DNA of 64,000 nucleotides from an uncultured delta proteobacterium. Lineage in GTDB: Bacteria > Myxococcota > UBA727 > VGSZ01. The notes under the pieces were generated by a model, which was not told where the DNA came from, ran no database searches, and saw only the letters and a list, made by a program, of their open reading frames with translations. This document shows positions 53,992-60,141 of the stretch, piece after piece. The translations under genes were made by a program, and so were the position numbers. The stretch's first letter is position 1, and each line of letters starts with the position of its first letter. The DNA lies in the NCBI GenBank assembly GCA_963775425.1, contig CAVZJB010000003.1, positions 640,001-704,000 of the forward strand, given 5' to 3'.

Positions 53992-55533
53992 TCACGCGGC
54001 CATCTCGAGCACGCGCGACGCCGGGATGTCCACCATCTGCGGGCGGCTCTTGAGCTCGTAGCGCACCTCGTAGAGCGCCTTTTCGAGCTCCACCGCCGAC
54101 AGGATGGCGTCGAACGCCTGCGGCGACGCCGGGAGCAGCCCCGTGTCCTTGACCGCGTCGACGTAGTTTTCCACGAAGCGCTTGCTGGTCTCCCGCGCCC
54201 AGCCGTCCTTGACGGCGGCGCCGTCGTTTTTGGCGGTGGCCTCGGCGTAGGAAAACGAGCGCAGCATGCCGGCGACGTCGCGCAGCGGCGTGTAGAAGCC
54301 GCGCCGCTCCTCCTTGGTGCGCGCGGGCTCGCCTTCGAAGTCGACGACCATCCAGTCGCCGTCCTTCTTCAGCACCTGGCCGAGGTGGAGGTCGCCGTGG
54401 ATGCGCGTCTTCATCCCCGAAGGGTCCACCGTCTTCAGCGCGTCGAGCCGCGCGAGCAGCGCCGGGCGCGCTTGGTCGAGCCTGGCGCCGAGCGCGGGGT
54501 TTTTCGCGCGGGCCTTCTCGATGGTGTCGTCGAGCTCGCGCGTGATGGACGCCGCCCACGCCGTGAGGTCCTCGCGGGTGATGGGCTGCGGCTTGAACGC
54601 GGGGTCGTCGACGCCGGCGCCGAGCGCCTTGTGCATCTCGCCGATGCGCGTGCCGAGGAGCGCCAGCTCGTCGCCGAGCTTGGGCGCGTCGCCGGCGAGG
54701 GCGGACAGCGTCGTGGACCACCCGTCGCCCTCGTTCTTCACGAGCTCGAAGAGCATGCCGATGGTCATCGGGCCGCTCCTGGTGTCCATGGTGAGCGTGC
54801 CGAGGAGCTGCGGCGTGTTCTTGTAGCCCTGCGTCGTCAGGTGCGCGGCCACCTCGCGCTCGATGGGCGTGCCGGTCTCGGGCTTGCGGTACGCCTTCAG
54901 CATGACGTCGCTGCCGACCTTGATGGACACGTTGGACTGCGGGACGCCGAGCGGCTTCACCACGGCGCCGTCCAGCGTCTGCGGCAGCTTCTGTCCCGGC
55001 GTGCGCTCCGCGCGCACCGAGCCCGACGACGACGGCAGCGTGGCGTTGTCGCCCACGGCGAGCACCATGGCCTTCACGAAGTCGGGATCCTTGAGCGCGT
55101 CGGCGAGCTTTTCGCCGTCGAACGCGAGGGGGACGTGGAAGAGATCGGCGCCGCCGTCGGCGTACTTGACGTCGAGGAGCGCGAGCTCGAACGACGCGCC
55201 GCCCGCCTCCACGGTGGCGCGCTCGGCGACGTCGACGGCCTTGACCGCGCGGCCCTTGCCCGTGAACCACTGCTCGCCCGCGCAAGACGCGATGAACGCC
55301 TGCAGCGCCTTCTGCGTCACGCCCGCGGGCAGCCCCGCCGGCAGCCGCAGCGAGAAGAGGTTGCCCCCGCCGTTGCTCGTGCCCACGGGCACGGAGGCCG
55401 GCGGCACGGGCGTCTCGAGCGGCGGCTCCGTCGTCTTCGTCGGGGTCGCGGTCAACTTGTCGTCGACGCGCCGGAGCTGCGCGGCGCTCTTGGCGTCGTG
55501 CAGCTTGGGCGTCTTATCGCGCGGGACGCGCAT
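53992..55533 (-). CDS. mak: Maltokinase (Mak/Pep2) with N-terminal extension
   Basis: QWFTGKGR, QSNVSI, RIHGDLHLGQVL, DFEGEP, PLRDVAGMLRSFSYA; GGAGG RBS. Confidence 0.92.
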   Translation of the reverse strand: MRVPRDKTPKLHDAKSAAQLRRVDDKLTATPTKTTEPPLETPVPPASVPVGTSNGGGNLFSLRLPAGLPAGVTQKALQAFIASCAGEQWFTGKGRAVKAVDVAERATVEAGGASFELALLDVKYADGGADLFHVPLAFDGEKLADALKDPDFVKAMVLAVGDNATLPSSSGSVRAERTPGQKLPQTLDGAVVKPLGVPQSNVSIKVGSDVMLKAYRKPETGTPIEREVAAHLTTQGYKNTPQLLGTLTMDTRSGPMTIGMLFELVKNEGDGWSTTLSALAGDAPKLGDELALLGTRIGEMHKALGAGVDDPAFKPQPITREDLTAWAASITRELDDTIEKARAKNPALGARLDQARPALLARLDALKTVDPSGMKTRIHGDLHLGQVLKKDGDWMVVDFEGEPARTKEERRGFYTPLRDVAGMLRSFSYAEATAKNDGAAVKDGWARETSKRFVENYVDAVKDTGLLPASPQAFDAILSAVELEKALYEVRYELKSRPQMVDIPASRVLEMAA

Positions 55534-55670
55534 CGGTCCTCCCCTGGCGCAGGGTATGTGGGTGCCTGTGGGTATCGCCTCGAAATTCCTTCGTGTTCGT
55601 GCGATCTTCATCGGTCAGATGAGGGAGTCGCATCCCCGCACACATCTCGGGAAGGAGCCGAAAAACCAAC

Positions 55671-57794: not shown

Positions 57795-57795
57795 G

Positions 57796-60141
57796 ATGCC
57801 CCGCGTGAACAAGAACCCCACGCGCGCCCTCCCCGTCGACACCTCCCGCGCGCGCCGCGCCAAGCCCAAGGACAAGCCCAAGGAGACGGCCACCACCACG
57901 CGCGCCACGCAGAACACCCCCGGGGCCAGCGCGCGCGCTCTCGCGCGCGTCACCGGCGCCGGCGACGGCGCCGCCGTCCACGACGTCCCCGAGCAGCAGT
58001 TGTTGGCGCTGGCGGCCGGCGTGCACTCCGATCCCCACACCATCCTCGGCGCCCACGACGCCGGCGGCGGCAAGACCCGCGTGCGCGCGCGCTTCGACGA
58101 CGGCGCGCAGGTGACGCTGGTGTACGAGGCCCCGGCCAAGCTCAACCGCGTGGGGCTGCCCATGCCCTCCAAGGGCGAGCAGCGGCTCGAGATGAAGCCC
58201 GGCGCGCACGGCTTGGTCGAGGCCGACGTCAAAGGCGGGATCGGCAGCTACCACTTCGAGGTCGACGGCAAGCGCGTCGAGGACCCGTATCGCTTCGCCC
58301 CCACCGTGTCCGACCTCGACATCTACCTGTTCAAAGAGGGGAAGCTCGAGGACACCGCGCACCTCCTCGGCGCCCACGACATGGAGCGAGACGGCGTCAA
58401 GGGCTTCAACTTCGTGGTGTGGGCGCCCAACGCCCGCGGCGTCAGCGTCGTCGGCGACTTCAACGACTGGGACCCGTCCAGGATGCCGATGCGCAAGCTC
58501 GGCGGCGCCGTCTACGAGTTGTTCGTCCCCGAGGTGAAGGGCGGCGACAAGTACATGTTCTCCGTCGCCGGCGAAAAGGGCGGGCGCACGCTCAAGGCCG
58601 ACCCCGCCGCGCGCTCGAGCGAGGTGCGCCCCGGCATCGCGTCCGTCACCGCGGGCCGGAGCAAGCACGTGTGGCACGACGCCTCCTTCATGAAGGCGCG
58701 GGCGGCCACCAATCCGCTGTCGCAGCCCGTCAGCACATACGAGGTGCACCTCCCGTCCTGGAAGCGCGAGGACGACGGCTCCATGAAGAGCTACCGCGAG
58801 CTCGCCGACGAGCTCGTGCCGCACCTGAAGAAGGAAGGCTTCAACGCCATCGAGCTGGTGGGCCTCGCCGAGCACCCGCTCGACGACTCGTGGGGATACC
58901 AGGTCACCGGCTACTACGCGCCGACCTCGAGGCACGGCTCGCCCGACGACTTCAAGTACTTCATGGACAAGATGCACGAGGCCGGCATCCGCGTCATCTA
59001 CGACTGGGTGCCCGCGCACTACCCCAAGGACCCGCACGGCCTCGCCGACTTCGACGGCACGCACCTGTTCGACCACGAAGACCCGCGGCTGGGCGAGCAC
59101 CTCGACTGGGGCACGCGCATCTTCAACTACGGCCGCTACGAGGTGAAGAGCTTCCTCATCGGCAGCCTGATGCACATGCTCGACGAGTATCACCTCGACG
59201 GCGTGCGCGTGGACGCCGTGGCCTCCATGCTCTACCGCGACTACTCGCGCACCGAGTGGATCCCCAACGAGGACGGCAGCAAGGAGAACCGTGAGGCCAT
59301 CGCGTTCCTGAAGGAGGCCAACGCGCGCGTGGGAGAGCGCTTCCCCGGCGTGCTGCGCATCGCCGAGGAGTCCACCGCGTTCCCCGGGGTCACCTCCAAG
59401 GACGGGCTCGGCTTCGATCTCAAGTGGAACATGGGGTGGATGCACGACACCCTCGACTTCTTCCAGACGCCCACCGGCGAGCGCGGCCAGCGGCTCGACG
59501 AGCTCACCAACACGTTCCTGTGGGCGCACTCGGAGAAGTTCGTCGCGGCGCTCTCGCACGACGAGGTCGTGCACCTCAAGAAGTCGCTGATCGAGAAGAT
59601 GCCGGGCGACGAGTGGCAGAAGCGCGCGAACCTGCGGCTGTTGTTCGGCTTCATGTTCAGTTACCCGGGCCAGAAGCTCCTGTTCATGGGGAGCGAGCTC
59701 GCGCAGCACGGCGAGTGGAACTTCCGAAGCGAGCTCGATTGGCAAAACGCCGACGGCGGCACCGAGCGGCTGCTCTCCGATCTCAACAAGCTCTACACGG
59801 AGGAGCCGGCGCTGTCGCAAAAGCAGTTCGACCCGTCGGGCACGGAGGCGTTCCACCTCGACCGGAACGACGCCGTCGTGGGGATGCGGCGCAAGGGAGA
59901 CAAGGCACAGGACGATCTCGTCTTCGTCCACAACCTCACGGAGACCCCGCGCACGGTGCGCCTCGGCGTCGACAAGGGGACGTGGAAGGAAATTCTGAAC
60001 ACCGACGCCAAGGCGTACGGCGGCAGCGACGTGCGCAACCCGCGCGCGATGGCGGCGAAGCCGGTGCCCGCCGATGAGAAGAAGTACTCAATCGAGGTCA
60101 CGTTGCCCCCGCTCGCGACCATCGTGTTGAAGCGTCGCTAG
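57796..60141 (+). CDS. glgB: 1,4-alpha-glucan branching enzyme GlgB with N-terminal extension
   Basis: VWAPNA, SWGYQ, RVDAVASM, IAEEST, LSHDEVVH. Confidence 0.97.
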   Translation: MPRVNKNPTRALPVDTSRARRAKPKDKPKETATTTRATQNTPGASARALARVTGAGDGAAVHDVPEQQLLALAAGVHSDPHTILGAHDAGGGKTRVRARFDDGAQVTLVYEAPAKLNRVGLPMPSKGEQRLEMKPGAHGLVEADVKGGIGSYHFEVDGKRVEDPYRFAPTVSDLDIYLFKEGKLEDTAHLLGAHDMERDGVKGFNFVVWAPNARGVSVVGDFNDWDPSRMPMRKLGGAVYELFVPEVKGGDKYMFSVAGEKGGRTLKADPAARSSEVRPGIASVTAGRSKHVWHDASFMKARAATNPLSQPVSTYEVHLPSWKREDDGSMKSYRELADELVPHLKKEGFNAIELVGLAEHPLDDSWGYQVTGYYAPTSRHGSPDDFKYFMDKMHEAGIRVIYDWVPAHYPKDPHGLADFDGTHLFDHEDPRLGEHLDWGTRIFNYGRYEVKSFLIGSLMHMLDEYHLDGVRVDAVASMLYRDYSRTEWIPNEDGSKENREAIAFLKEANARVGERFPGVLRIAEESTAFPGVTSKDGLGFDLKWNMGWMHDTLDFFQTPTGERGQRLDELTNTFLWAHSEKFVAALSHDEVVHLKKSLIEKMPGDEWQKRANLRLLFGFMFSYPGQKLLFMGSELAQHGEWNFRSELDWQNADGGTERLLSDLNKLYTEEPALSQKQFDPSGTEAFHLDRNDAVVGMRRKGDKAQDDLVFVHNLTETPRTVRLGVDKGTWKEILNTDAKAYGGSDVRNPRAMAAKPVPADEKKYSIEVTLPPLATIVLKRR

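Follow-up and report, generated by a model that had tools for sequence, protein, structure and literature searches.

The mak-glgE-glgB locus

The 64,000-nucleotide stretch of DNA analysed here (the window; positions 640,001 to 704,000 of contig CAVZJB010000003.1, assembly GCA_963775425.1) comes from an uncultured delta proteobacterium of the Myxococcota. It encodes three enzymes of the GlgE pathway of α-glucan synthesis, the maltokinase Mak, the maltosyltransferase GlgE and the branching enzyme GlgB, with mak divergent from glgE and glgB (Table 1). All three enzymes begin with an N-terminal extension of about 65–75 residues that precedes the first recognisable domain. We find that these extensions, or tails, are real and coding, that they resemble one another in composition but not in sequence, and that further α-glucan enzymes elsewhere in the genome also carry tails, beside a canonical set of enzymes that has none.

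Profile matches support the three assignments. GlgE matches its three domain models above their cut-offs (PF11896, 153 bits; PF00128, 38.8 bits; PF21702, 94.7 bits), and its residues Asp447, Glu476 and Asp532, which we take to be the GH13 catalytic Asp/Glu/Asp, are the same in all 35 GlgE sequences aligned. Its donor is predicted from the family assignment to be maltose-1-phosphate. GlgB exceeds the cut-offs of two equivalog models, PRK05402/NF003811 (789 bits against 741) and TIGR01515 (748 bits against 464). Mak matches PF18085 (32 bits, cut-off 22) and PF01636 (38 bits, cut-off 23.2). It scores below the cut-off of the NCBIfam 'putative maltokinase' model TIGR02457 (296 bits against 375), a model built on TreS-fused forms, and its closest relatives are annotated as maltokinases by the Joint Genome Institute (JGI). 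An initial annotation of the window, made from the DNA letters, had judged the catalytic motifs to be intact; the invariant alignment columns, which presumably include the catalytic positions of GH13 enzymes and kinases, are indeed kept.

The glgB ATG, as read from the sequence, lies one nucleotide after the glgE stop codon. Apart from glgE and glgB themselves, no gene of the window gives a GH13 match, so treS is missing from the locus, as had been noted.

Coding potential of the extensions

Alignment with tail-less homologues, which had been proposed as the way to delimit the extensions, gives lengths of about 70 residues for Mak, 75 for GlgE and 65 for GlgB. The first recognisable domains are Mak_N_cap at about residue 82 (of the 513-residue form), GlgE_dom_N_S at residue 76 and GlgB_N at residue 66. 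The extra residues described in the initial annotation are thus present, coding and, as shown below, kept in orthologues.

Open frames alone are no proof of coding here, because the genome has a GC content of 72%. Stop codons are rare in it, many spurious open reading frames overlap the locus, and the extensions might be artefacts of long open frames, with the true starts lying downstream. The first 30 codons of glgE fit such a start to some degree, in that their GC content at the third codon position, in frame (GC3), dips to 0.77. Over the three entire extensions, however, GC3 is 0.98 for Mak, 0.88 for GlgE and 0.98 for GlgB, against about 0.72 for overall GC and 0.96–0.97 for the remainder of the genes. 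The 26 codons that lie further upstream in the longest mak open reading frame have a GC3 of 0.67 and are rejected by the codon model. A codon-usage gene caller trained on the genome returned the same three starts as the initial annotation. Shine-Dalgarno sites precede the proposed starts (Table 1), and the start of glgB is coupled to the end of glgE.

Independent orthologues, called by other pipelines, also carry the extensions. This is true of the closest relatives of mak, glgE and glgB in a collection of 5.8 billion proteins, with BLASTP identities of 73% and 71% for GlgE (P0005 and P0006), 70–75% for GlgB (P0124–P0126) and 58–62% for Mak (P0244–P0246). From the gene-like GC3, the rejected upstream mak codons, the Shine-Dalgarno sites and the extended orthologues we conclude that the extensions are translated. 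Downstream starts are largely refuted already, and we consider them very improbable.

Disorder, composition and conservation of the tails

AlphaFold2 models of GlgE and Mak, built with family alignments, have confident cores, with mean predicted local distance difference test (pLDDT) scores of 83 and 86 respectively. In both models the N-terminus is predicted to be disordered, with pLDDT below 50 over residues 1–67 of GlgE and residues 1–61 of Mak.

The tails have a net charge of +5 to +13. The charge is highest in GlgE (+13) and also high in GlgB (+8); the Mak tail is weakly basic (+3 over 55 residues, +5 over 85). Threonine makes up 10.6–13.8% and proline 10.8–12.9% of the tails, against 5.2% and 6.0% in the proteome, with Mak at 10.6% Thr and 12.9% Pro and GlgB at 13.8% Thr. 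The hydrophobic fraction is 0.12–0.24 for entire tails (0.12 in GlgB) and 0.11–0.18 for the first 55 residues, against 0.31 in the proteome. No Sec or Tat h-region was found in the first 55 residues of Mak, GlgE or GlgB, where the highest Kyte-Doolittle mean over 12 residues is 0.41–0.57, below the 8th percentile of the proteome; this bears out the earlier statement that the tails lack a Sec or Tat hydrophobic core.

Between orthologues the tails are only 28–50% identical and contain many indels, compared with 60–75% identity for the cores. Their composition nevertheless holds: all 11 tails compared have a net charge of +3 to +13, a Ser plus Thr content of 11–35% and a hydrophobic fraction of 0.09–0.27. 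The extreme N-termini are conserved within each family, as MPRV in GlgB, MP-V-x-V in GlgE and MRV-x-RD in Mak. The GlgB orthologues P0124–P0126 keep an MPRV or MGV start and a Ser/Thr/Arg-rich stretch, and the second half of the GlgE tail is conserved in P0005 and P0006. Because charge, Ser/Thr content and low hydrophobicity hold despite low identity and indels, the tails appear to be under selection for composition, not for sequence.

The tailed orthologues of the three enzymes probably lie on the same contigs elsewhere too, judging from equal figures for the longest contig reported: 14944 (all three enzymes), 8067 (GlgE and GlgB) and 53283 (GlgB and Mak). Of the 57 loci from a metagenome scan for tailed orthologues, not one exceeded 52% identity. 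With GlgE, GlgB and P0136 as queries, scans of genomes stayed at or below 59%; the best match was L056, which is partial, and the others were at most 54% identical.

The initial annotation had called the three extensions similar and had pointed to a shared Gly...hydrophobic-Arg patch at their ends. The resemblance in composition stands; the patch does not. When Smith-Waterman local scores of tail pairs were compared with 300 composition-preserving shuffles each, no motif common to the three tails emerged (z = 0.16 for Mak/GlgE, 0.65 for Mak/GlgB and 1.16 for GlgE/GlgB). Among all 28 pairs of eight tails, the highest z values, uncorrected for 28 tests, were 2.79 for two TreS-like paralogues and 2.61 for GlgE against TreS-like 3. 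The Mak patch, GG-x-N-x-x-S-L-R-L-P, is conserved in four of four tailed Mak orthologues and is confined to Mak. In the model its residues 55–65 lie at the junction of disorder and order, where pLDDT climbs from 33 to 70–91, and it resembles the border of the cap domain more than a signal common to the tails. The likeness of the three tails is one of composition: cationic, rich in Ser, Thr and Pro, and poor in hydrophobic residues.

A second, untailed pathway and further tailed enzymes

The initial annotation had suggested looking for a second, untagged treS-mak-glgE-glgB set. A search of the window's own assembly (8.26 Mb; labels beginning with C denote its contigs) finds it at C11:669087-677908, as a canonical operon that encodes a TreS-Mak fusion of 1089 residues, a GlgE (665 residues, domain from residue 5), a short GlgB (634 residues) and MalQ. 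An ordinary untailed GlgA of 495 residues is encoded at C8:91526. A Ser/Thr protein kinase gene (C11:667157-669049) adjoins the untailed operon, beside malQ, and immediately upstream of the operon (C11:678028-679648) lie two possibly spurious open reading frames that consist almost wholly of Thr/Ala runs or Gly/Asp/Asn repeats.

Tails are found on further α-glucan enzymes: three TreS-like GH13 proteins, a second glycogen synthase, GlgA2, with 262 extra residues (Table 1), and, as a weak case, GlgP, which has about 28 Ser/Thr-rich N-terminal residues. The best PDB relatives of the TreS-like proteins are trehalose synthases, and their scores are far under the cut-off of the NCBIfam TreS model. 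All five proteins start with a polar, basic, Ser/Thr/Pro-rich stretch, and the GC3 of their tails is 0.94–0.97. The earlier proposal that a whole pathway is tagged therefore holds in part: Mak, GlgE, GlgB and further α-glucan enzymes are tailed while the untailed paralogues are bare, but no common motif unites them.

Among relatives, a GlgA2 query against 40 of them gave matches only from about residue 260 onwards, and TreS-like 1 has one close orthologue fragment (73%), in G012. The GlgA2 extension and the TreS-like proteins thus seem to be essentially confined to this genome among the relatives sampled.

Strictly basic tails (net charge of at least +6) occur on 64 of 5609 predicted proteins, among them GlgE, GlgB and TreS-like 1, and also RpoD, ribosomal proteins, a Ppx/GppA-family protein and many proteins with Lys/Ala/Pro repeats. 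About 130 residues rich in Lys, Pro and Ala precede region 1.1 in the RpoD-type primary sigma factor (C3:248124-250316), the first Pfam domain of which starts at residue 136. The Ppx/GppA-family phosphatase (C5:324203-325459) has a basic leader of about 115 residues, its domain starting at residue 118. More than 12 proteins have histone-H1-like Lys/Ala/Pro repeats at their very start.

The surroundings of the other tailed genes were searched for a partner that they share. A PilT-like ATPase was found at two of them and none near mak-glgE-glgB: TreS-like 1 and GlgA2 each end an operon-like run headed by such an ATPase (C5:458161-462721 and C7:290653-294786), with a small HDOD or SCP2 protein between the ATPase and the glucan enzyme. 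The two ATPases (Pfam T2SSE) are paralogous, 42% identical, and each has an extra N-terminal domain. Fourteen other proteins match the PilT-like ATPase; in about 11 of these the match runs along the PilT-like core. None of the 14 is encoded near mak-glgE-glgB.

The neighbours of the mak-glgE-glgB locus itself are SMC, three proteins that lack a Pfam match, an NtrC-type regulator and a TPR protein. Two of the three unmatched genes, at 51747-52718 (−) and 52717-53907 (+), lie between smc and mak; one product is lipoprotein-like, with a signal peptide and Cys, and the other is Cys-rich, with Asp-Ala-Gly-Val repeats and a hydrophobic N-terminal segment. The sigma-54 activator of the NtrC type (61050-62393, +; receiver, AAA+ and Fis-type helix-turn-helix) lies about 900 bp downstream of glgB, and a protein of 206 residues that has no Pfam match is encoded between them.

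Table 1. Features of the mak-glgE-glgB locus (positions in the window) and related genes elsewhere in the genome (positions on contigs C2–C16)
Feature	Position	Strand	Extent	Remarks
mak (maltokinase)	53992..55533	−	513 aa	Starts MRVPRDK; Pfam Mak_N_cap and APH; start chosen by gene caller
glgE (alpha-1,4-glucan:maltose-1-phosphate maltosyltransferase)	55671..57794	+	707 aa	Pfam GlgE_dom_N_S, Alpha-amylase, GLGE_C
glgB (1,4-alpha-glucan branching enzyme, long form with N domain)	57796..60141	+	781 aa	Pfam GlgB_N, CBM_48, Alpha-amylase, Alpha-amylase_C
Divergent spacer mak/glgE	55534..55670		137 bp	
Shine-Dalgarno-like site of mak	55538..55545	−		AGGGGAGG on coding strand, 4 nt before ATG
Shine-Dalgarno-like site of glgE	55650..55657	+		GGAAGGAG, 13 nt before ATG
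Shine-Dalgarno site of glgB	57783..57789	+		GAGGAGG, within the end of glgE, 6 nt before ATG
Mak disordered tail	55351..55533	−	residues 1-61	pLDDT <50
Mak junction patch	55339..55371	−	residues 55-65	GGGNLFSLRLP; 'patch' of the initial annotation
GlgE tail	55671..55895	+	residues 1-75	Predicted disordered over 1-67
GlgB tail	57796..57990	+	residues 1-65	
TreS-like 1 (GH13)	C5:460475		748 aa	Domain from ~residue 172
TreS-like GH13	C2:17296		785 aa	Domain from ~residue 199
TreS-like GH13	C3:173092		916 aa	Domain from ~residue 375
GlgA2	C7:292537		749 aa	GlgA domain from residue 263
Non-flagellar type III secretion-like set, in four places	C9:108128-122641; C9:218127-220042; C16:1085265-1086413; C4:94355-96505			

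A proposed second cytoplasmic α-glucan set

The reading that we favour, and to which we give about an even chance, is that the tailed enzymes form a second, lineage-specific cytoplasmic α-glucan set with disordered tails for regulation or co-localisation, beside the canonical untailed pathway. The set would comprise Mak, GlgE and GlgB at the locus together with the three TreS-like proteins and GlgA2 elsewhere. Their tails would act through composition, with no need of a shared motif. They could be flexible handles that bring the enzymes together at one surface, for example a glucan granule or some other site of polyanionic or condensate-like nature, and they could serve as multi-site Ser/Thr phospho-acceptors for the large kinase complement of the organism (154 Pkinase-domain matches), so that the whole set is switched or placed together.

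Tails are enriched on α-glucan enzymes. With the tail class defined as predicted proteins of at least 150 residues whose first 55 have a hydrophobic fraction of at most 0.20 and no hydrophobic core, it includes 8 of 22 α-glucan-family proteins (Pfam matches to the GH13, phosphorylase and starch-synthase families, plus Mak and MalQ) against 213 of 5609 genome-wide (Fisher p = 7.7e-7, a value obtained with our own crude gene caller, with thresholds set post hoc and with three TreS-like paralogues that are not independent). The tails are coding, predicted to be disordered, constant in composition between orthologues and absent from the canonical paralogues; the cytoplasmic site, the co-localisation and the phospho-control of the set are inferred.

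Mak uses ATP and GlgA uses ADP-glucose, both of them cytoplasmic substrates according to a review of the pathway (PMC11046441). As these substrates are needed, the tailed Mak and GlgA can work only inside a cytoplasm. The same review describes a complex of mycobacterial TreS and Mak formed through the Mak cap domain, and phosphorylation by PknB lowers the activity of Mycobacterium tuberculosis GlgE (PMC4663749). The comparable basic tails of the cytoplasmic RpoD and Ppx/GppA proteins of this genome also count for a cytoplasmic site. Regulatory terminal tails are a feature of eukaryotic glycogen enzymes.

Several points weigh against this reading. Besides the caveats attached to it above, the enrichment weakens when the hydrophobic limit is tightened to 0.18 (5 of 22 against 121 of 5609; p = 8.4e-5). 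Folded-looking helical parts follow in the TreS-like proteins after about residue 100 and in GlgA2 after about residue 60, so that to speak of one tag may be to lump unlike extensions together. No kinase, phosphatase, FHA protein or scaffold gene adjoins the locus. In the GlgE tail a single Thr, in a ...WTPP... stretch, is kept in three of three orthologues and is the sole one, which tells against phospho-control. The architecture, a disordered segment of about 60–100 residues ahead of an enzyme, would, judged from sequence, fit a secreted effector equally well, and the genome encodes a needle-less apparatus resembling a type III secretion system (T3SS).

Alternative explanations of the tails

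The tails may have no specific function, and be tolerated low-complexity leaders or at most solubility or 'entropic bristle' segments. They would have originated in a divergent, possibly horizontally acquired set of paralogues, upstream in-frame starts being easily recruited at high GC. The low identity of the tails, their many indels and the lack of a common motif all suit this explanation. Short basic leaders of variable sequence are, moreover, common on GlgE: 38 of 120 homologues have at least 20 residues before the domain, or 34 when four N-terminal fusions to another GH13-like domain are set aside. A GlgE query gave no GlgE-level match in any of 10 same-family genomes, which would fit recent acquisition of both sets. 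On the other hand, the tails persist on all three enzymes though the orthologue cores have diverged by 25–40%, their charge, Ser/Thr content, low hydrophobicity and extreme N-termini are conserved, and their codon usage is fully gene-like. Drift alone would hardly concentrate the tails on a single functional class and divide the paralogues so cleanly into tailed and untailed ones, and we regard tails that lack a function as unlikely.

The charge of the tails invites another explanation, that they bind a polyanion (polyphosphate, nucleic acid or anionic lipid) or target a proteinaceous compartment, independently of kinase control. A net charge of +5 to +13 with Lys/Arg clusters, the long basic leader on the exopolyphosphatase-family protein and the many H1-like repeat proteins of the genome agree with binding to polyanions; the Mak tail, however, is only weakly basic. 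The models also lack an amphipathic helix of the kind found in encapsulation peptides, Mak having no helix in residues 1–61 and GlgE one at residues 44–48 only, and the tails have no motif in common that could load cargo. No shell, encapsulin or scaffold gene was seen near the locus, though no search for them was made. The initial annotation had named a granule or compartment as one destination, and this is compatible with the sequences; in the form that dispenses with kinases we think the explanation rather improbable.

Secretion apparatus and the possibility of export

The initial annotation had also proposed secretion, and had suggested a check for T3SS genes. Export components are present in duplicate, with two above-cut-off matches each for FHIPEP, Bac_export_2, YscJ_FliF, FliP and Bac_export_1. 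A complete flagellar cluster lies at C9:331-381 kb. A non-flagellar cluster at C9:110-122 kb encodes SctR/S/T-like, FliM/N-like and FliO-like proteins, a T3SS ATPase, a YscO-like protein, a weak HpaP match and an FHA/YscD-like protein, and SctJ-, SctU- and SctV-like genes are scattered elsewhere in the genome. This set looks needle-less from the genes recognised, secretin and needle genes not having been searched for. Because it is present, the secretion proposal does not fall for want of a T3SS. The lone FlhA/SctV-like gene adjoins a LexA-like gene, identified as such by eye from its N-terminus.

The tails could then be export signals, with or without chaperone-binding regions, for a needle-less T3SS-like machine or the flagellar gate, which would carry a glucan-synthesis pathway into prey or host cells or out to the envelope. 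An N-terminus of 60–85 residues that is disordered, rich in Ser, Thr and Pro and devoid of a hydrophobic core resembles the architecture of effectors, and the untailed housekeeping set, which coexists with the tailed one, would be free to serve the cell itself. In experiments that a preprint describes as preliminary, residues 1–30 of GlgE and of TreS-Mak, taken from two Chlamydiales, were enough to support type III secretion in a Shigella assay (bioRxiv 10.1101/2020.06.02.131169). Myxococcus xanthus uses a needle-less T3SS* for prey lysis, its substrate being unnamed in the passages concerned (PMC10849154).

The tails are polar, Ser/Thr/Pro-rich and disordered, but strongly basic, whereas the N-termini of the flagellar substrates of this organism appear by eye to be non-basic. 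Equally basic tails stand on RpoD and Ppx, and basic tails are also found on GlgE of Vicinamibacterales, Verrucomicrobiota and Gemmatimonadota. Of five genomes with a basic-tailed GlgE, four have a single FHIPEP and in one none was found, the completeness of these genomes being unknown. The whole tailed set is anabolic, Mak and GlgA2 could use their substrates, ATP and ADP-glucose, only in the cytoplasm of another cell, and the benefit of glucan there is not evident. The tailed genes are distant from both T3SS-type clusters. Beside the locus, where three neighbours lack a Pfam match, nothing was recognised as a chaperone-like or secretion gene; many effectors have no linked chaperone, so this is weak evidence.

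Taken together, these observations make export improbable. A specific version of it, in which the tails are the long-sought signals that mark substrates of the needle-less T3SS* or of a PilT-like ATPase route, the complete tailed set is exported and the untailed set does the housekeeping, has in our judgement a small chance of being correct, and that estimate already covers prey, host and the cell's own envelope as destinations.

Comparison with known systems

The cytoplasmic set that we favour can be compared with several systems. The GlgE pathway of Mycobacterium, Streptomyces and Pseudomonas, as set out in PMC11046441, has the same enzyme families and reaction order, and glgE and glgB are coupled here. 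Actinomycetes have a stand-alone Mak, as at this locus, and the usual operon with a TreS-Mak fusion is present elsewhere in our genome. The differences lie in the disordered cationic tails of 60–75 residues on three enzymes, the absence of treS from the locus and the place of the set as a second copy next to an untailed one. Neither 'N-terminal extension' nor 'intrinsically disordered' occurs in the first 300,000 characters of that review, and a literature search at the level of titles and abstracts found no description of a tailed GlgE set beside a bare one.

In Chlamydiae, glycogen enzymes of the same pathway, including GlgE and TreS-Mak of Estrella and Waddlia, are T3SS substrates, with the secretion information in the first ∼30 residues, according to bioRxiv 10.1101/2020.06.02.131169; a T3SS-type apparatus is likewise encoded in the present genome. 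Those organisms are obligate intracellular, with a complete injectisome and a host compartment to act in, whereas ours is flagellated and has an 8.3 Mb genome. The non-flagellar set also resembles the needle-less T3SS* of Myxococcus (PMC10849154).

The control of M. tuberculosis GlgE by PknB offers a precedent for Ser/Thr control of an α-glucan enzyme, and the present organism is rich in kinases. The phospho-sites of the M. tuberculosis enzyme, however, were mapped in folded domains, not in a tail (PMC4663749).

GlgE leaders in other bacteria are cationic, rich in Ser, Thr, Pro and Arg, and placed before domain N, like the tail described here. They measure 48–89 residues in Vicinamibacterales, where the N-terminus is conserved, 55 in Limisphaera and 22 in Gemmatimonadaceae, and their GC3 (0.80–0.92, against 0.79–0.90 for the cores) marks them as coding. 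Most are 20–55 residues long, the longest 89, and none can be aligned in sequence with the tail found here; this comparison was made on GlgE only. A short conserved cationic leader, often with Arg-Arg-x-Ser/Thr, occurs in L005, L010 and L018 (Vicinamibacterales), in P0022–P0046 (Gemmatimonadaceae-like) and in L061. Arg-Arg-x-Ser/Thr is the type of site preferred by basophilic kinases; we treat it as a lead only, because Arg and Ser/Thr each make up ∼20% of such leaders and the chance of the motif in 20 residues is not small. Basic terminal tails with phospho-sites are known from eukaryotic glycogen phosphorylase and glycogen synthase.

Significance

The enzymes and the pathway described here are textbook material; the tailed paralogous set beside a bare set is new. 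Should the tails be export signals, the needle-less T3SS of myxobacteria-like predators would gain its first candidate substrates, and the chlamydial theme of secreted glycogen enzymes would extend to a free-living lineage. Should they be a common handle, carried as disordered cationic tails by at least seven enzymes, the organism would present a natural experiment, with two parallel α-glucan systems in one cell, one of them bare. Spatial or kinase-based organisation of this kind was not found described for the GlgE pathway in the literature searched; if confirmed, it would mean that storage-polysaccharide metabolism in bacteria can be organised in space or by kinases, as it is for the glycogen enzymes of eukaryotes.

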